Shown here piece by piece: positions 1-6,841 of a stretch of 7,541 bases of DNA (positions are counted from its first letter, which is position 1; each line of letters opens with the position of its first letter). A program made the position numbers and the translations under genes. Origin of the DNA: a virus (taxonomy: Duplodnaviria > Heunggongvirae > Uroviricota > Caudoviricetes); IMG/VR virus record IMGVR_UViG_2645727593_000017, positions 1-7,541 of that record; one strand, written 5' to 3'. Under the pieces are notes generated by a model that was not told the DNA's origin, ran no database searches, and was given only the letters and a program-made list of their open reading frames with translations.

Positions 1-1119
1 TCAAATAACCAACTTAACCCATTCCTGACCTCGAGTATCGTTATAGCGATCGGTGGTTGCCTGGACTTTATGTCCTAGTAATGTTTTTGTATCGATACCC
101 TGTGCACGGTACAGCCGTTCTGATAGAGAGCGTTGTTCATGAAATGTTGGCGGAGTTTTTCCTGCTGGTGGAATTATCCCAGCCAGATCCCGTGCTTTGG
201 CAAAGTAGCCGCTCAGGTTGTCTTTACTCATCGGCTTCGGTTGTTTCTGGTGCCGACTATGGATTAGATATGGACTTAATATTCTGTCTCGGCACCCATC
301 AATAACTTCTTTTAACGTTATCCCAATGGCATCACAGCGTAGTGTAAGCGGTAATGCCAGACGCATTCCGGTTTTTCCCTGGGTGATATGCAAGTGTTCG
401 TTCCACACATCTGAAAAACGCATGTGGCAAATGTCATCACGGCGCTGACCAGTAACAATCGCAAGAAGCATTGCGTTACGGATAAAGTGTTTTTCAGGCG
501 TTGTATTGTAAATTTTTTGCCAGTCTTCCATGGTGAGCCTGGCTCTGGTTACTTTAGGGATCGGTTTACGGGTAGCCTCCGGAGGATTCCATCCAGGAGG
601 AACTTCCCCTGCATGCTGTGCTTCTTTATAAATATCAACCCATAATCCACGATTTACTCTCGCTGTGCTGACCATGTCTTTATCCAGCCACTCATCCAGT
701 ATTAATGCAAAGTCTCTTACTTCCAGTTCTTTCAATGGGTGGTTTCCCAGACGGGAAACCAGGTATGCAGCCATTCGAGTTTTTTCTTTGTGAGTTGTAG
801 CTGCAATATCTCCATTTTTCAGTCGCGCGTCCTGTATTTTCAGATATCGATCAACCCATGCCTTTAATCTGATGCCCCGACGTTTTGTTGCTGACGGACT
901 TTCATCAATTTTGCGCATGAAATATTCAGCTTCTGCTGCAGCTATTCGCTGATTGGCTGTGGAAGCGATTTTTTCTGCTTTGCCTTTGTCTGTTCCGAGA
1001 CCGTGAAATTTTCCAGTCACAGGGTTTTTATACTGGTAGTAAACCCTGCCAGTTCTGCGATCAAACTTTTCGTAAAGACCGGTTACGTCAGTGCTGTTTT
1101 TTCGTGGCCTCGGTGACAT
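1..1119 (-). CDS. int: Phage tyrosine integrase (lambda Int family), complete, 372 aa
   Basis: Complete ORF with ATG at 1119-1117 and TGA at 3-1. AAGGAG Shine-Dalgarno lies 10 nt upstream of the start. The N-terminal arm-binding region resembles lambda Int (YYQYKNPVTGKFHGLGTDK). The C-terminus carries tyrosine-recombinase catalytic motifs (HEQRSLSERLY ... LLGHK ... TTDRYNDTRG, with the catalytic Tyr). The start overlaps the 3' end of xis as in lambda. Confidence 0.93.
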   Translation of the reverse strand: MSPRPRKNSTDVTGLYEKFDRRTGRVYYQYKNPVTGKFHGLGTDKGKAEKIASTANQRIAAAEAEYFMRKIDESPSATKRRGIRLKAWVDRYLKIQDARLKNGDIAATTHKEKTRMAAYLVSRLGNHPLKELEVRDFALILDEWLDKDMVSTARVNRGLWVDIYKEAQHAGEVPPGWNPPEATRKPIPKVTRARLTMEDWQKIYNTTPEKHFIRNAMLLAIVTGQRRDDICHMRFSDVWNEHLHITQGKTGMRLALPLTLRCDAIGITLKEVIDGCRDRILSPYLIHSRHQKQPKPMSKDNLSGYFAKARDLAGIIPPAGKTPPTFHEQRSLSERLYRAQGIDTKTLLGHKVQATTDRYNDTRGQEWVKLVI

Positions 1120-1339
1120 GAGTTAAAATCTCCTTCAGTGCATCATCATCGCCAGTATGAATTTCCGGCGCAATTCCCGTTTCACCAGGTCCAACAAATA
1201 CTGCCCGGCGATCTATCAGCCAACGCCCACGAATTTTTTGTGGTCTTGGAACGATGTATCCTAGTTTTCCGTATTTCACCAGGGTAGTGTTTGTTATTGG
1301 GAGACTGAACCGTTTTGGTTTCCACTCGTCGAGCGTCAT
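1088..1339 (-). CDS. xis: Excisionase (Xis/AlpA-like winged-helix DNA-binding protein), about 83 aa
   Basis: The product MTLDEWKPKRFSLPITNTTLVKYGKLGYIVPRPQKIRGRWLIDRRAVFV resembles the lambda Xis N-terminus (LTLQEW ... winged helix). The 3' end overlaps the int start by 32 nt, the usual xis-int arrangement. The start is ambiguous: in-frame ATGs at 1339, 1348 and 1387. Confidence 0.75.
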   Translation of the reverse strand: MTLDEWKPKRFSLPITNTTLVKYGKLGYIVPRPQKIRGRWLIDRRAVFVGPGETGIAPEIHTGDDDALKEILTHVTEATKKQH

Positions 1340-2951
1340 CAAGTGCATTATGGCGCTCACCTTCGAATGGGATAGCCGTTCTGGCATCGAAGTCTATGGC
1401 TTTCCCCAGCTCAACGATTGTGCGTACATCGCGATCGTTGTAGTAACGCCACGGGCAGGGGATCCCCTGCCGTTCGTATGAACGGCGCAAAATCGTGTTG
1501 TCGAAGTTGGCTCCATTTCCCCAGACCTGAACAAAAAATTCACCGGAGTTTTCGTCGATAAATTCCCGCAATTGCAGTAGTGCATCATCTAACGGGATTT
1601 CATCGGTCATAATGGCAGACTGCGCTTCACGTGATTGCTTCAGCCACCATTTAATGGTGTCACGATCAATGACTCCGCCAGCAGTTTCCAGATCGATAGT
1701 CTTACTAAATTCCGGTCCCATATCTCCGGTTTGCGGATCGAAAAATATTGCACCTATTGAGATAATCGGGGCATCAGGATTTTTTCCCATGGTTTCAAGG
1801 TCGATCATTAGATGGTCACACGTCCTGCTGGTGGATGTGATAACGCGATGACCGTTCACCGTAATTAAGGGATCTGCCGTCTCGCCAGTTTCACTATCGC
1901 TGGCGTGATCCTGAGCGCTGCCAGCATTCTCCTTGTGTGGATGTTCAGCGCCTTCCATTTTCTCCGAATCGTCTTCCTGAACTTCAACCTGGTTCTTGTC
2001 ATCGAATGTTTCCTGGTATGTTGCGTCGCCCATCACCGCACCACAATCAGGGCAGTTGCCACCGCCGGTCTGACCGCAGGCGGTGCAGACTTTTTCCACT
2101 TCCTGTTGCGCCACTGGTTCAGGCTGTTTCGTTTCTGGCTCGTTTTGTAACGCATTTGGGCTGTTTTGTTCCGCTTTCTGGTCGTTCTGTTCCGTTTCTT
2201 GCTGGTTCTGGTTCACAGAATCGCGGGTTTCAATCCCCTTCACCCATTTCGGATCATTCGGGTCGCTAATCCCTGCAACAAATTCACCACGTGATGCGGC
2301 GAGCAACTGATTGGCGTCAGGCTGGCTGATATTGGCTGCCTGCATAATTTTGTTTACTTCGTCAGCGGTAACTTTTACCGGTTCTGGCTGTGCGGTCGTG
2401 TCAGATGCACCAGTATTTTGTTGTGAACCTGAGTATGTACTGTTTTTGCGGGCGAAATATTCTTCTTTCGTGATTTCAGTAGCCCCGGCAGCCAGCGCCT
2501 TATCCAGACCAGAAAGTTTGTTTGCGCGACCGTATTTTTCGCCATCCTTGTCGGTGAAGAGGAAGTAGAACGGCCCCTCACGCTCTACAGATGGTTCGAC
2601 TTCCACTTTGCATTCGGTTTTTTCGTTGTCCGGAATTGCCGTTTCCACTGCATCAGTTTCTGGTACTGGCGACGAGAGAGTATCAGTTGCGCTCTGATTT
2701 GTTCCTTCATCTTCAAACACGCCCTTTGTAGTCAGGTATTCAGTAATGTATTTGTTCAGTGCCACAGGATCTTTGTGAATGTCGATCGGACGTTCACGGA
2801 CAAGGCCAAAAATAGTCTGGCGGTCGTAGCGAAGGGCATCAGGCTGTTTGCGCATCGATGCCGAGATACGCTTCCAGTCTTCGCGGTCGTTGTCGATAAC
2901 TTCATTTTTTGCCCAGCGATGGATGCTGCCGTCAATGTTTCCGGCATCCAC
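1182..2951 (-). CDS. Large acidic protein with C4 zinc ribbon and C-terminal DEDDh (DnaQ-like) 3'-5' exonuclease domain; probably the downstream part of an ~850-codon frame interrupted by TGA at 2961-2963
   Basis: 589-codon ORF. Exo I motif MIDLETMG at nt 1788-1808, Exo II WGNGANFDNTIL around nt 1500-1517, Exo III HNALDDA (H-x-A-x-x-D-A) at nt 1332-1352. CTACGQTGGGNCPDC (C-x2-C-x7-C-x2-C) zinc ribbon at nt 2043-2087. Q/E-rich acidic linker upstream of the ribbon. The ORF begins with GTG directly after an in-frame TGA, with no Shine-Dalgarno and no ATG until codon 33. Confidence 0.7.
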   Translation of the reverse strand: MDAGNIDGSIHRWAKNEVIDNDREDWKRISASMRKQPDALRYDRQTIFGLVRERPIDIHKDPVALNKYITEYLTTKGVFEDEGTNQSATDTLSSPVPETDAVETAIPDNEKTECKVEVEPSVEREGPFYFLFTDKDGEKYGRANKLSGLDKALAAGATEITKEEYFARKNSTYSGSQQNTGASDTTAQPEPVKVTADEVNKIMQAANISQPDANQLLAASRGEFVAGISDPNDPKWVKGIETRDSVNQNQQETEQNDQKAEQNSPNALQNEPETKQPEPVAQQEVEKVCTACGQTGGGNCPDCGAVMGDATYQETFDDKNQVEVQEDDSEKMEGAEHPHKENAGSAQDHASDSETGETADPLITVNGHRVITSTSRTCDHLMIDLETMGKNPDAPIISIGAIFFDPQTGDMGPEFSKTIDLETAGGVIDRDTIKWWLKQSREAQSAIMTDEIPLDDALLQLREFIDENSGEFFVQVWGNGANFDNTILRRSYERQGIPCPWRYYNDRDVRTIVELGKAIDFDARTAIPFEGERHNALDDARRVETKTVQSPNNKHYPGEIRKTRIHRSKTTKNSWALADRSPGSICWTW

Positions 2952-2960
2952 ATCACCAGG

Positions 2961-3737
2961 TCAGAGAGCGTAGGCCAGTTCGTCATCCAGTGTTTTCCAT
3001 GTCTGCTTATATTCGCGACGAATGACTGCAGTGACAGGGGGGATTTTTTCTGCTGAGTTTTCAGTGTGCTGTCGGTGGACTCTGGCGCGGGCGAGATCAA
3101 CAACAGACGTGTATTTTCCGGTTTCCTTGCGTTCACCTTCGCGACGTTTTTTCCAGATGCGCATCTCTGCCTGAATTTCGGGCCATTTGGCACCAGGCTT
3201 ACATTTATGCTTAACCCACCCGATGGCATGCAGCTTAAGCTCCGGATACATGGCGTTAACTTCTGGCATTTTCATCAACGCTTCAACGATATGTCCGTCG
3301 AATGTTGCCATGTCTTCCTGCAACAATTCCTGCGCGCTAATCACCATATCAACGGTGATGTTTTCACATGTGTCGAACTTAACCATGACAGCGTTCTGTA
3401 CTTCAAGGGACAGTTTGTCAAAATTGACGTTCATCGGTTCGGATTCTGGTTCGACCGGAATAAAGGAAGCGGATTCCTCATCCCAGCGGTTTTCCTGCAT
3501 ATATTCGGTATCCCAGGAGTCGATAGCAGGGCGGGGCATGCCGGGTTTATCCTCGCAGATAAGAAATTTATAAGCGCAGTCCTGAGCAGCCGGATATTGC
3601 TCCAGGAATTGCCAGGTAAATTTGGCACGGGCGCGGCGTTCGTCACCGGCTTCAATGGCAGTGGCTACAGCAACTGCACCTTCTTCCTTTATTGCCTGTT
3701 CGTCCGGAATGGCGGCGCAAATAAAGACTTTACTCAT
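2961..3737 (-). CDS. Hypothetical acidic protein, 258 aa; likely the N-terminal part of the interrupted large nuclease gene
   Basis: ATG at 3737 with GAGG 10 nt upstream. Same strand and same reading frame as ORF 1182-2951, separated from it only by TGA-CCT-GGT-GAT. The composition looks protein-like, whereas the antisense ORF 3066-3755 is F/G/L-rich, typical of a mirror frame. No recognisable motifs. Confidence 0.6.
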   Translation of the reverse strand: MSKVFICAAIPDEQAIKEEGAVAVATAIEAGDERRARAKFTWQFLEQYPAAQDCAYKFLICEDKPGMPRPAIDSWDTEYMQENRWDEESASFIPVEPESEPMNVNFDKLSLEVQNAVMVKFDTCENITVDMVISAQELLQEDMATFDGHIVEALMKMPEVNAMYPELKLHAIGWVKHKCKPGAKWPEIQAEMRIWKKRREGERKETGKYTSVVDLARARVHRQHTENSAEKIPPVTAVIRREYKQTWKTLDDELAYAL

Positions 3738-3860: not shown

Positions 3861-4082
3861 TCACCATGACTCTGCTTTTACAGGTAAACCATCACGACCA
3901 AGGAAGACTTTAATCATGGTTTCCTTAATACAGTGTTGTGTGGAAAAATCACGAATATAGAGCCGTTGTTTTTTAATGTTGTTTACCGAAGCAATATATG
4001 TTCTTCCTTTATGAATAACATAATCACCGGGAGTCACGCACTGACGAGGAATCTCATCAGTTCCGAAGTGATGAGCAATCAT
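3861..4082 (-). CDS. kilR: KilR-like small killing / cell-division inhibitor protein, 73 aa
   Basis: The [76 protein letters not shown] matches in length and sequence my recollection of Rac KilR. The start was chosen at the ATG at 4082, which has GGAG 6 nt upstream; the track ORF begins 4 codons earlier. Position left of the immunity region fits Rac gene order. Confidence 0.6.
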
Positions 4083-4655
4083 AATTATCTCCATTTTTAC
4101 AAATGAACTTTGTTGATGCGGTGCCTGGTGCCTCCAGGTGACGTTAACCAGTTAACAATTAACGCCGGATACAGAGAGCCCACCCATAACACTGTTTTTG
4201 GTTTTAACTGTTCCGCGTGCGCTCAGCCGCATTCACCGCATCACAAAACTCACTTTAAAAAGGGCGGCAGACCAGTCACGGAGTAAAACTGATACCGCCA
4301 AACGTCACCAGAAAATTGATAACAGAGGGCGTTGCAGCGGGGTTGTCACTTAAGCGTATGGTCAACCTGACAACCCGGTGTCCTCAACGGGGGAAGGAAT
4401 AACCCCGCCATACTTACCGCCGCGCCATTTCGCGGATTGCCACAACCGGAAGCGCACGGTCGACGAAAATTTAACGACAGGCTATCTATGAACCAGCTAC
4501 CTCGCCGTGCGCTTTCGCGTTATGGTCTGACTTTTCAGGGAAATATCCTTTCAGTAAACTGTCAGTGCCGGATGCTCACCCGTGTCCGGCGCAAGCACTC
4601 CACCTCACCCGTGGAGAACTCCTTAATTACCAACCTTAGCTTCGTTGGTTAGCTA

Positions 4656-4874
4656 TTAACGCGGGTATGTAATCATTCTGGCAATGGTTAATGCCGCTGC
4701 TTTTTCCAGATTGGTGATATCCTGCTCCAGAGAGGACAGATTTTCAGCCTGCTTAGCCCTGACTTCATTAGCCCATTTCAGATCCTGCGCTGCATTAATT
4801 TTCTGGTGCATCCACTCATAAAGTTCATCATTGGTATAGTCTGGCGCGATGATGACGGGTTCTCGTTTCTGCAT
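4656..4874 (-). CDS. Hypothetical small protein, 72 aa, early-left operon
   Basis: ATG at 4874 preceded by GAGGA (spacer about 6 nt). Lies directly downstream of the 42-codon ORF in a PL-driven cluster. No recognisable motif. Confidence 0.5.
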   Translation of the reverse strand: MQKREPVIIAPDYTNDELYEWMHQKINAAQDLKWANEVRAKQAENLSSLEQDITNLEKAAALTIARMITYPR

Positions 4875-5033: not shown

Positions 5034-5270
5034 TCACCCACCTGAATTTCTTTCCAGCCAGCGACGCGCTCCAGATTCGGTTTTAAACGTTTTGCTTTTG
5101 GTATACGTCATTGCGGTGAACGTACCGTACTGGTTGGGGAACACGCCACATACCAGAGATTCGCTGTTGCCAAGATCGATAGTATCCATGCTGACCTCAT
5201 TTCCCCTTAACGCCGGGGTAGCGGAACAAAAACCTGCTGCATAGTTATTAAAGTTGAACCCTGCCGTCAT
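5034..5270 (-). CDS. Hypothetical small protein, first gene downstream of PL (78 aa from ATG 5270, or 51 aa from ATG 5189)
   Basis: ORF ... MDTIDLGNSESLVCGVFPNQYGTFTAMTYTKSKTFKTESGARRWLERNSGG. Both candidate starts have GAGG upstream. It sits about 95 nt downstream of the predicted PL transcription start. Possibly equivalent to the small ydaF/ydaG-type Rac genes, but I cannot confirm this. Confidence 0.5.
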   Translation of the reverse strand: MTAGFNFNNYAAGFCSATPALRGNEVSMDTIDLGNSESLVCGVFPNQYGTFTAMTYTKSKTFKTESGARRWLERNSGG

Positions 5271-5507: not shown

Positions 5508-5984
5508 TTAAGTTCCTGTCTTGGTGATGTTCTGGCTTTTCCGTTTTGATGCTTGATTTTTCAGATAGTTAGCTACCTTCATTTCCATTGCGGCAATGTA
5601 GGCGCGAACGTCATGATCAACCCAACTAGGCTCCGTAGCATTTCCAGATAAGATGAAAGCCACAATTGCTCTTTTTTCATCAGAGGCGGCTTGATAAAGG
5701 CTGTTTATGTCTAAAAGTTCACTTTTTGTATCTGAAGTGGATGGGGTTGGTATGGGGTATTCGTTAAGCCCCCAATGCTCTGGACCAACCACATCAGAAA
5801 AGAAACGCCATAGTTCTGGAAGTTTGTCTTTACTTATCGAACCTTTCTTAATCCAGTCATGGATTGATGGTGGTTGGACTTTGAAATGACGTGCGATTTC
5901 CGCCTTTGATTTGACGGCTCCTGATGCAATTTTTTTGTTAATGGCCTGCTCTATCGCTCGGCCTAAATCTTTACCACTAAGCAT
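5508..5984 (-). CDS. racR: Prophage immunity repressor, HTH_XRE type, 158 aa, no LexA-like peptidase domain (RacR-like)
   Basis: ATG at 5984 with AGGAGA upstream. HTH segment KSKAEIARHFKVQPPSIHDWIKKG. Divergent from a cro-like gene and flanked by operator/promoter inverted repeats. Length and neighbourhood (KilR-like to the left, YdaS/YdaT-like to the right) match Rac. The symbol is assigned by architecture, not by sequence recall. Confidence 0.65.
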   Translation of the reverse strand: MLSGKDLGRAIEQAINKKIASGAVKSKAEIARHFKVQPPSIHDWIKKGSISKDKLPELWRFFSDVVGPEHWGLNEYPIPTPSTSDTKSELLDINSLYQAASDEKRAIVAFILSGNATEPSWVDHDVRAYIAAMEMKVANYLKNQASKRKSQNITKTGT

Positions 5985-6036
5985 TGCTTAATAGTCTCCT
6001 ATGCGCATCGCGTTAGGCAATCCCTACTCTCGATGT

Positions 6037-6079
6037 ATTAGGCATAGCCTATTGACAATTTCATTAGGCTAAGCCTAAT
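6037..6079. promoter_or_regulatory. OR-like operators: ATTAGGC-ATA-GCCTATT (6038-6054) and perfect palindrome ATTAGGC-TAA-GCCTAAT (6063-6079)
   Basis: Two 17-bp palindromes with 7-bp arms and 3-bp centre, 25 bp apart centre to centre, overlapping PR. The left one is part of the 23-bp inverted repeat shared with OL. Confidence 0.55.
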
Positions 6080-6081
6080 AT
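6052..6081 (+). promoter_or_regulatory. PR-like early rightward promoter: -35 TTGACA (6052-6057), -10 TAATAT (6076-6081, 18-bp spacer) or CTAATA (17-bp spacer)
   Basis: Consensus -35 located 52 bp upstream of the cro-like ATG. The -10 region is embedded in the perfect operator palindrome. Confidence 0.5.
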
Positions 6082-6108
6082 TGTTGCGTGTTTTTTGGAG
6101 TTCATTCG

Positions 6109-6432
6109 ATGAAAAAAGATAACTATTCATTCAAACGAGCTTGTGCTGTTGTCGGTGGGCAATCAGCAATGGCTAGGCTTTTAGGTGTATCTCCTCCAAG
6201 CGTAAATCAATGGATCAAAGGTGTACGTCAGTTACCTGCTGAGAGATGTCCTGCGATTGAACGAGCAACAAAAGGTGGTGTCCTGTGTGAAGAACTTCGT
6301 CCTGATGTTGATTGGACATACTTACGACGCTCGTCATGTTATTCGCAGAATATGTCGATGAAGCAACCAAATGACGAAAACGATCATACCCGAAGCATCA
6401 AGAGGCAAATGATTCATGAAAATCAAACATGA
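6109..6432 (+). CDS. ydaS: Cro/YdaS-like HTH regulator, 107 aa
   Basis: ATG at 6109 with GGAG 8 nt upstream; the track ORF begins at an upstream GTG at 6088. HTH segment QSAMARLLGVSPPSVNQWIKGVRQLP. Divergent from the repressor across the operator region. Its 3' end overlaps the next gene by 17 nt. Confidence 0.7.
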   Translation: MKKDNYSFKRACAVVGGQSAMARLLGVSPPSVNQWIKGVRQLPAERCPAIERATKGGVLCEELRPDVDWTYLRRSSCYSQNMSMKQPNDENDHTRSIKRQMIHENQT

Positions 6433-6841
6433 GCACATCCGCATGGCGATGAATGCCTGGGCATACCCTGATGGTGAGAAAGTTCCTGCAGCTGAAATAG
6501 CCCGGACTTATTTCGAACTGGGGATGACGTTCCCTGAACTGTACGACGACAGCCATCCGGAAGCCCTGGCCCGTAATACCCAGAAAATTTTCCGTTGGCT
6601 GGATAAAGACACCCCTGATGCTGTTGAAAAAATGCAGGCTCTGTTACCGGCGATCGAAAAGGCGATGCCGCCTTTGCTGGTGGCCCGTATGCGCAGCCAC
6701 AGTTCTGAATATTACCGTGAGATCGTCGAACGGAGGGATCGGCTGGTGAAGGATGTCGATGATTTTGTTGCGTCAGCGGTTGTTTTGTATGACCAGATGA
6801 ATCGCGGCGGCCCGGCAGGGAATGCTGTGGTGATGCACTAA
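6416..6841 (+). CDS. ydaT: YdaT-like protein (CII-like or toxic regulator family), 141 aa
   Basis: ATG at 6416 with AGAGG upstream, overlapping the ydaS-like stop. Length and position match the Rac racR-ydaS-ydaT arrangement. The antisense ORF 6423-6881 is P/S/R-rich and judged spurious. Confidence 0.65.
   Translation: MKIKHEHIRMAMNAWAYPDGEKVPAAEIARTYFELGMTFPELYDDSHPEALARNTQKIFRWLDKDTPDAVEKMQALLPAIEKAMPPLLVARMRSHSSEYYREIVERRDRLVKDVDDFVASAVVLYDQMNRGGPAGNAVVMH

Follow-up and report, generated by a model that had tools for sequence, protein, structure and literature searches.

We have found that two adjacent minus-strand open reading frames of 258 and 589 amino acids are very probably the remains of one gene, a prophage exonuclease that should have become a pseudogene recently through a nonsense codon and has kept decaying since. 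This apparently represents gene decay and not a recoding device. The window (the whole stretch of DNA that was analysed, 7,541 nucleotides) is 100% identical to the E. coli draft contig JHTJ01000018.1. It comprises the int-xis-exo-kil-DicF-immunity arm of a lambdoid prophage whose attachment site adjoins potC, slightly beyond the window edge, and the exonuclease gene occupies the slot between kil/dicB and xis-int. No DicB remnant was detected in the window by tblastn. The features that matter here are listed below.

1..1119, minus: integrase, lambda-type, intact, 372 aa (ORF list, profile search, relatives' annotation)
1088..1335, minus: xis remnant, codons 8-89 and stop, own Shine-Dalgarno and codons 1-7 lost (Pfam Exc, alignments)
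1182..1329, minus: foreign tail of 48 codons and stop, read from the exonuclease frame, which crosses the xis remnant out of frame
1182-2951, minus: 589-aa ORF, GTG start, first in-frame ATG at codon 33
1330..1336, minus: junction of a 153-bp deletion (alignments to the nearest intact allele, L001, and to the sister contig L004, which is without the deletion)
1330..2960, minus: exonuclease codons 260-803, RecE-like middle region and Rv2179c-like DEDDh domain (PHROG 2082, PF16473, NF007259)
2910..2963, minus: RNA hairpin starting at the UGA (dG -23.4 kcal/mol, z = -2.2)
2961..2963, minus: premature TGA at codon 259, TGG (Trp) in relatives, G-to-A at window position 2961 (alignments)
2961-3737, minus: 258-aa ORF, ATG start, C-terminus ...TLDDELAYAL
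2964..3737, minus: exonuclease codons 1-258, YdfE_N and YdfE_C module (ATG and Shine-Dalgarno, PHROG 2082, Pfam)

The TGA at 2961-2963 parts the 258-aa ORF from the 589-aa ORF in an identical frame, and the linking sequence reads TGA CCT GGT GAT, i.e., the base after the stop is C. The chance of 589 open codons right after a stop is (61/64)^589, or about 5e-13. A reading made from the sequence only had proposed that a single in-frame TGA splits one frame of ~850 codons. The split has been borne out, while the length has not, since it includes the 48-codon out-of-frame tail and the intact gene has 823 codons. The ATG of the 258-aa ORF has a Shine-Dalgarno duplex of -6.3 kcal/mol. For the downstream GTG and ATG, we found no usable Shine-Dalgarno (anti-SD duplexes of -2.8 and -3.3 kcal/mol, on a scale where the window background averages -2.4 and the real starts of exo, int, racR and ydfC range from -5.9 to -8.8 kcal/mol). 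In addition, a search of the minus strand between the ORF parts gave no sigma-70-like promoter. The same reading held that the downstream part is without start signals of its own, and this agrees with our data: no usable Shine-Dalgarno, no ATG before codon 33, and no promoter. With Shine-Dalgarno and promoter both missing, an own start for the downstream ORF was rejected.

All the close relatives examined carry one uninterrupted 823-codon "exonuclease" gene at this locus. In the nearest complete genomes it is a single 2472-nt CDS, flanked by kil or dicB and by excisionase/integrase genes, and five genomes of the phage collection (mEp460_ev081, Evi, Tritos, PhiR42_1, and HannyBb) also match without interruption. 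Codon 259 is TGG in the homologous loci L001, L003 and L008, and locus L002 is annotated as an intact 2472-nt CDS. At protein level, Trp occupies residue 259 in 74 of 79 cluster representatives, with identity down to ~66%. In more distant homologs, the N-terminal module forms the N-terminus of proteins of 600-980 aa, and short matches are fragments; a natural two-gene architecture was looked for among them and not found. Judging by these alignments, the fused architecture is ancestral. The idea of a single gene cut by a nonsense codon, a recently inactivated pseudogene whose homologs should have a sense codon at this place (TGG was among those named), has thus found its intact counterpart, an 823-codon gene with TGG at codon 259. 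We have also looked for the opposite case, homologs consisting of two genes with a well-supported start for the second, and have not found it.

The nearest intact allele (L001) differs from the window copy at 9 positions over 2468 nt, of which 8 are synonymous and the last changes W259 to TGA; there is no further non-synonymous change, frameshift or stop in the exonuclease gene relative to this allele. By this comparison, the nonsense lesion is young. The window copy no longer holds the single frame of ~823 codons, due to the TGA at codon 259 and the 153-bp 3' deletion.

The profile searches also treat the two ORFs as one protein. PHROG 2082 (823 positions) spans both halves end to end, the 258-aa part covering positions 1-258 of 823 (E = 3e-189) and the downstream part positions 263-816 of 823. 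PHROGs contains, in addition, separate families of 257 and 530 positions that resemble the two halves. A protein identical to the 258-aa product has precomputed Pfam assignments to PF27430 and PF27432 (YdfE_N/YdfE_C). This fragment corresponds to the entire YdfE-like module and might keep an activity; it has no significant match among solved structures, and the literature searched gave nothing relevant on a tested function for the exonuclease or for YdfE. Some phage homologs match from residue 245 onward only, and the stop lies ~14 residues beyond this module boundary. In the structure prediction for residues 1-441, residues 206-385 have a pLDDT <50, and the model around residue 259 is poor. 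For the catalytic part, PF16473 (Rv2179c-like DEDDh) matches with E = 2.7e-62. The alignment covers 2-168 of the 177 profile positions, whereas an intact homolog is aligned over 2-177; the window copy still has the H-x4-D motif 'HNALDD' but no longer the final helix. NF007259 (RecE) gives a partial match of 275 bits (model 271-603 vs residues 246-626). As this covers the middle region only and the equivalog cut-off is 1269 bits, an identity with RecE, or exodeoxyribonuclease VIII, is ruled out.

The stop is a rare, derived and lineage-restricted allele among the thousands of copies compared. In 3,466 complete E. coli genomes, the 61-mer searched is matched at 5,199 places, and 0 of them are identical. 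A TGA-bearing 33-mer occurs in one record only of the complete genomes, which PGAP annotates as a pseudogene with 'internal stop'. Of the phage-collection records, 17 contain the larger part of the exonuclease gene and 0 of these have the stop, and a TGA-bearing 39-mer has no exact match in a one-genome-per-species collection. A search of complete E. coli genomes for TAG at codon 259 found none. Among ~15 billion proteins, the exact 258-aa product comes from 2 contigs only. Overall, the TGA carriers are two sister draft assemblies, probably from one project, and one unrelated complete genome.

The sister contig JHTF01000008.1 (GCA_001266355.1) has the TGA and differs from the window in 3 SNPs as well as in the 153-bp deletion; its exonuclease 3' end and its xis are intact. 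Since the sister has the TGA without the deletion, the nonsense mutation is the older lesion and the deletion the younger. The deletion, which went unremarked in the sequence-only reading, has a 7-nt microhomology (ACGCTCG) at its junction, within a 14-nt imperfect direct repeat. It takes away the last 20 exonuclease codons with the stop (the natural C-terminus in relatives is ...DDARYQAKYVSVIWQKLIPSQADF), together with the spacer in which the ribosome-binding site of xis lies, and codons 1-7 of xis. Possible replacement in-frame ATGs for the xis remnant exist at 1348 and 1339. Being 5'-truncated in xis, the prophage may be impaired in excision.

Taken together, we suggest the following course of events. 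The two ORFs would each be half of a single prophage accessory gene, known as an 823-aa 'exonuclease' in relatives. Within the lineage of the window strain, the TGG of the conserved Trp-259 should have become TGA by a G-to-A transition. This lesion would be older than the split of the two sequenced sister strains. With TGA at codon 259, translation from the genuine start should yield 258 residues and essentially none of the catalytic part; what follows the stop has no promoter, Shine-Dalgarno or ATG of its own. Later, and in the window strain only, a slippage-type event between short direct repeats would have removed the 153 bp. Any readthrough product would then have Trp-259 restored, but would miss the C-terminal end of the nuclease domain and bear a 48-residue nonsense tail.

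On the other hand, the gene might have stayed functional with two products, a predominant 258-aa YdfE-like protein and a little full-length enzyme made through UGA-C and Trp-tRNA, in a useful and maintained ratio. Bacterial termination at UGA-C is documented as inefficient (PMC5289835), and some full-length protein is therefore likely made. Readthrough of UGA in E. coli relies on Trp-tRNA in competition with RF2 (PMC10570021), so the ancestral Trp at codon 259 would be given back. The position of the stop shortly after the module boundary and its second appearance in an unrelated allele fit this explanation as well. This second appearance and the separate PHROGs families could hint at a split form that has not come about by accident alone. 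However, the stop occurs in just one matching place of the complete genomes and in none of the phage-collection records. Moreover, the hairpin sequence and the +4 C are unchanged in the TGG alleles, i.e., the leaky context is not restricted to stop-bearing alleles, which argues that it was not selected for leakage. The hairpin, to which an Rfam search assigned no element, is a pre-existing feature of the coding sequence, unspecific to the stop allele. In addition, the later truncation of the nuclease domain in the window argues that the full-length product had ceased to be under selection. A functional two-product gene is thus quite improbable. The earlier proposal of a short product plus a readthrough fusion may hold as far as incidental leakage is concerned; we have seen no sign of programmed or maintained leakage, and the stop is not conserved among the homologs examined.

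The second appearance of the stop deserves separate consideration. In E. coli O111:H11 strain 8D, a pseudogene of the same gene family (KP535_RS15035) has the same TGG-to-TGA change at codon 259. This allele differs from the window allele at 167 positions in 2472 nt and has its own 3' end intact, and it lies in a PPompW-type prophage at ompW whose int/xis and immunity region differ from those of the window. Most simply, these differences would make its W259 stop an independent mutation. As to why the same G-to-A should recur, inspection by eye suggests that the mutated G lies slightly outside the adjacent Dcm site CCTGG and is bulged in the hairpin. Neither deamination of 5-methylcytosine nor quasi-palindrome template switching would then explain the change. 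It is quite improbable that the stop is no pure accident, having arisen at least twice closely behind the YdfE-like module and been kept because it gives resident prophages a simple and reversible means of tuning or silencing a nuclease that could do harm, with a separate 258-aa protein and a trickle of full-length enzyme, Trp restored, from readthrough.

The window derives from a draft short-read assembly and the change concerns one base, so the TGA might be a sequencing or assembly error in a gene that is intact in the cell. We consider this very unlikely, because GCA_001266355.1 has the identical TGA in distinct data, as its 3 SNPs and 153 bp of difference reveal, and the complete genome of another strain has the same kind of allele. 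Still less credible is a true two-gene locus with reinitiation at the GTG (2949-2951), four codons past the stop. Post-termination ribosomes can sometimes reinitiate at ~9 nt past a stop, as in translational coupling, and the GTG is 9 nt away. However, there is no usable Shine-Dalgarno, the -2.8 kcal/mol duplex directly abuts the GTG, the homologs are fused with Val at this codon, and the distant ones are long single proteins. Finally, a hairpin-directed recoding of the UGA as selenocysteine, which the stable hairpin at the UGA could suggest, is effectively refuted by homologs carrying Trp, neither Cys nor Sec, at codon 259, by the unchanged hairpin in TGG alleles and the missing Rfam match there, and by the geometry, as the fdhF-type SECIS has its hairpin ~11 nt downstream of the UGA and a characteristic loop, while the present hairpin begins at the stop itself and has an unlike loop.

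The young, decaying pseudogene stands as the preferred explanation, a case of ordinary decay of prophage genes whose importance goes little further than a correct annotation. For this, the 258-aa and 589-aa ORFs should be joined into one pseudogene with an internal stop and a 3' deletion, the internal stop being handled in this way by PGAP for strain 8D, and xis should be marked as 5'-truncated. Still, the locus gives a tidy and datable case of stepwise prophage decay, and the gene explains the origin of the orphan 'ydfE' of K-12. What stays mildly interesting is only that an unrelated allele has acquired the same stop.

Compared with known systems, the closest is the intact 823-aa exonuclease of PHROG 2082 (e.g., WP_061330130.1, E. 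coli F2_407_2_2), which is alike in gene, slot and domain order. Its nearest intact allele has 99.6% DNA identity to the window copy, which in turn has TGA for TGG at codon 259 and loses the last 20 codons. Several truncated forms of the exonuclease gene exist in complete genomes. In the PPompW prophages of EHEC O26 (e.g., LC567839.1), the annotation likewise treats the gene as a pseudogene within an otherwise complete prophage, where the lesion is a small frameshifting deletion instead of a nonsense codon. In K-12, the same N-terminal module survives as a remnant in the pseudogene ydfE (b1577, Qin), the namesake of Pfam YdfE_N/YdfE_C, which belongs to a decayed lambdoid prophage and lies downstream of dicF-dicB-ydfD. 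Its 3' end is overlapped by IS2E with no exonuclease-domain CDS annotated after it, whereas the window has the whole gene with a point mutation. RecE of the Rac prophage is likewise a large phage exonuclease in the same genomic slot with a homologous middle region, but its catalytic domain is the RecE nuclease, and that of the window gene is DEDDh (Rv2179c-like). The read-through protein A1 of the Qbeta coat gene is a programmed UGA readthrough that shares with the window the UGA, an in-frame extension without a start, and decoding by Trp-tRNA. Such programmed readthrough, however, involves a conserved stop and a required extension, while in the window the stop is rare and derived, and the extension has been damaged further.

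The exonuclease gene of the window is a young and unexceptional nonsense pseudogene from a well-populated family of prophage exonucleases, eroded further by a deletion that clips the excisionase gene (xis) too. The window matches contig JHTJ01000018.1 (assembly GCA_001267335.1) at 100% identity and represents one arm of a lambdoid prophage whose insertion adjoins potC. It carries the following features.

Features of the window
1-1119, minus strand: integrase
1088-1335, minus strand: excisionase remnant
3737 down to about 1330, minus strand: exonuclease gene
2961-3737, minus strand: 258-aa ORF, with an ATG start and the end ...TLDDELAYAL-TGA
1182-2951, minus strand: 589-aa ORF, sharing the frame of the 258-aa ORF
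3861-4094, minus strand: kil, Rac-type (KilR)
4262-4313, minus strand: DicF RNA, full-length (Rfam RF00039, 74 bits vs a gathering score of 48)
4656-4874, minus strand: ydfC
5034-5270, minus strand: DUF1391 gene
5508-5984, minus strand: RacR-like repressor
6088-6432, plus strand: YdaS-like gene
6416-6841, plus strand: YdaT-like gene

In this arrangement, Rac-type kil (3861-4094, minus strand) and a RacR/YdaS/YdaT-type immunity region (5508-6841) are joined with Qin-type ydfC and DicF. The kil-immunity stretch varies among close relatives, some of which have DUF1482 and an intact dicB where kil stands; this is a typical lambdoid mosaic junction. The terminal base of DicF (4262) is the site of one of only three SNPs separating the window from a sister assembly.

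After the TGA, which is followed by C, the unchanged frame continues as CCT GGT GAT GTG... into the 589-aa ORF. The earliest candidate start of this downstream ORF is a GTG 4 codons past the stop, and the first ATG is 33 codons in. The anti-Shine-Dalgarno (anti-SD) duplex energies at the downstream candidate starts are -2.8 and -3.3 kcal/mol (window background mean -2.4), while the real gene starts in the window (exo, int, racR, and ydfC) score -5.9 to -8.8. That is, a usable SD is absent at both candidate starts, and no promoter-like site is present on the minus strand between the two ORF parts. The checks of frame, start, and SD agree in all details with the sequence-only reading, which had described an in-frame TGA split, a GTG-only start, and no SD.

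Its main proposal, that one gene is cut by a nonsense codon, is borne out by the relatives. The two complete E. coli genomes nearest to the window (99.4% and 98.1% identity across this stretch) have here a single 2472-nt CDS of 823 aa, annotated "exonuclease" or "3'-5' exonuclease". Against PHROG 2082 (823 positions), the two ORFs cover positions 1-258 and 263-816, respectively, and an uninterrupted single-piece match is found in five phage-collection genomes (mEp460_ev081, Evi, Tritos, PhiR42_1, and HannyBb). The N-terminal part has Pfam YdfE_N and YdfE_C (precomputed matches on an identical protein), the middle region resembles the RecE middle (NF007259, with a score far under the cut-off), and the C-terminal end matches the profile of an Rv2179c-like DEDDh 3'-5' exonuclease domain. 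The distant relatives of the N-terminal module, collected by exhaustive HMMER search, nearly all measure 600-980 aa and carry it at their N-terminus. Their C-terminal nuclease partners are Rv2179c-like DEDDh or PDDEXK/DUF3799, and several relatives of 700-790 aa show no Pfam match whatsoever. Considering the single CDS, the PHROG family, the phage genomes, and the long distant relatives together, the fusion of N-terminal module and nuclease is ancestral, and the YdfE-module proteins form a family of large phage exonucleases, modular in build and putative in function.

Compared base by base with the nearest intact allele, the window shows 9 differences in 2468 nt, of which 8 are synonymous and the ninth changes TGG (Trp259) to TGA; this supports the earlier interpretation as a recently inactivated pseudogene. 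A sense codon at the stop had been proposed as the check in homologs, and codon 259 is indeed TGG in all aligned intact alleles (L001, the nearest, L003, and L008). At protein level, Trp occupies this position in 74 of the 79 cluster representatives covering it, down to about 66% identity. TGA at codon 259 is a rare allele: 3,466 complete E. coli genomes contain 5,199 places matching the window 61-mer around the stop, none of them identical to it, and no genome has a TAG allele here. A 33-mer query that could match only with the A of TGA present hit a single record and no phage record, and the exact 258-aa product occurs in only two contigs of a large protein collection.

The same TGA is present in a second contig, JHTF01000008.1 of GCA_001266355.1, which is separated from the window by three SNPs (including a synonymous one within the exonuclease gene) and keeps the exonuclease 3' end and xis intact. 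Since this contig is not identical to the window, a sequencing error is unlikely, and the TGA has been passed down in a small lineage. The 544 codons downstream of the stop are without further damaging substitution, which shows that inactivation was recent.

A second lesion escaped the sequence-only reading: 153 bp are missing from the window relative to all relatives, the sister contig included, and none of the best-matching complete E. coli genomes has this deletion. The junction is a 7-nt microhomology, ACGCTCG (1330-1336; affected stretch 1088-1387), within an imperfect direct repeat of 14 nt, CTTGATGACGCTCG / CCTGATAACGCTCG, the hallmark of slippage or microhomology deletion. Exonuclease codons 804-823 with the stop, a 61-nt spacer bearing the xis ribosome-binding site (SD), and xis codons 1-7 are lost. 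The exonuclease frame now runs for 48 codons through xis, out of frame, so the conceptual fusion has about 851 codons, and the 589-aa ORF and the xis-frame ORF overlap. The ~850-codon frame described earlier includes this tail made by the deletion, while the natural gene has 823 codons. The Pfam nuclease-domain match ends at profile position 168 of 177 in the window, while that of an intact homolog reaches 177. The nonsense mutation came first and the deletion second, the order expected of a gene already freed from selection. Substitute ATGs are kept in the xis frame at 1348 (preceded at 7 nt by an SD-like GGTGAG) and 1339, which might still allow production of a slightly altered Xis; excision of the prophage may be impaired.

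A short product plus a readthrough fusion had also been suggested. Bacterial UGA stops that have C as the next base are documented to terminate inefficiently (PMC5289835), which backs the remark on a leaky context. In E. coli, UGA is read through by Trp-tRNA in competition with RF2 (PMC10570021), so readthrough at codon 259 would, by coincidence, return the ancestral Trp. However, neither the +4 C nor the stable local RNA hairpin is specific to the stop allele. The conserved Pro260 codon starts with this C, and the hairpin (2910-2963, minus strand; dG -23.4 kcal/mol, z = -2.2), which begins at the stop codon and holds the mutated base as a bulge, belongs to the coding sequence, since its sequence is identical in TGG alleles. 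Moreover, the readthrough product of the window allele would bear a nuclease domain damaged by the deletion. The UGA-C leakiness is incidental here, and this alternative can be true only as unselected leakage. Selenocysteine recoding of the UGA is excluded by the Trp in homologs.

The nonsense pseudogene has counterparts elsewhere. E. coli O111:H11 strain 8D has the same TGG to TGA change at codon 259 (NZ_CP077469.1, 5015-5017 of locus L007), in a gene copy that PGAP labels a pseudogene, noting the internal stop. That allele is unrelated (6.8% divergent) and lies in a different prophage, of PPompW type at ompW. As the gene offers 308 single-step nonsense targets, 77 of them transition-type, and has more than 10,000 copies in complete genomes alone, one coincident W259* recurrence is not remarkable. 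The strain 8D stop would have arisen independently or through a short gene-conversion tract, the latter being compatible with the 125 identical nucleotides common to both alleles around the stop. In PHROGs, a 257-position family matches the 258-aa ORF end to end and a 530-position family begins at the first in-frame ATG past the stop. These look like exonuclease halves, which implies that some (pro)phage genomes are annotated as split near here. The gene is also often broken in other ways: complete genomes hold several truncated forms, the copy in the PPompW phages of O26 is frameshifted, and ydfE of E. coli K-12 (NC_000913.3, 5079-5999 of locus L006; Qin cryptic prophage), annotated as a pseudogene, has its 3' end overlapped by IS2E. 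K-12 ydfE appears to be an N-terminal remnant of this exonuclease family, hence the Pfam names YdfE_N and YdfE_C.
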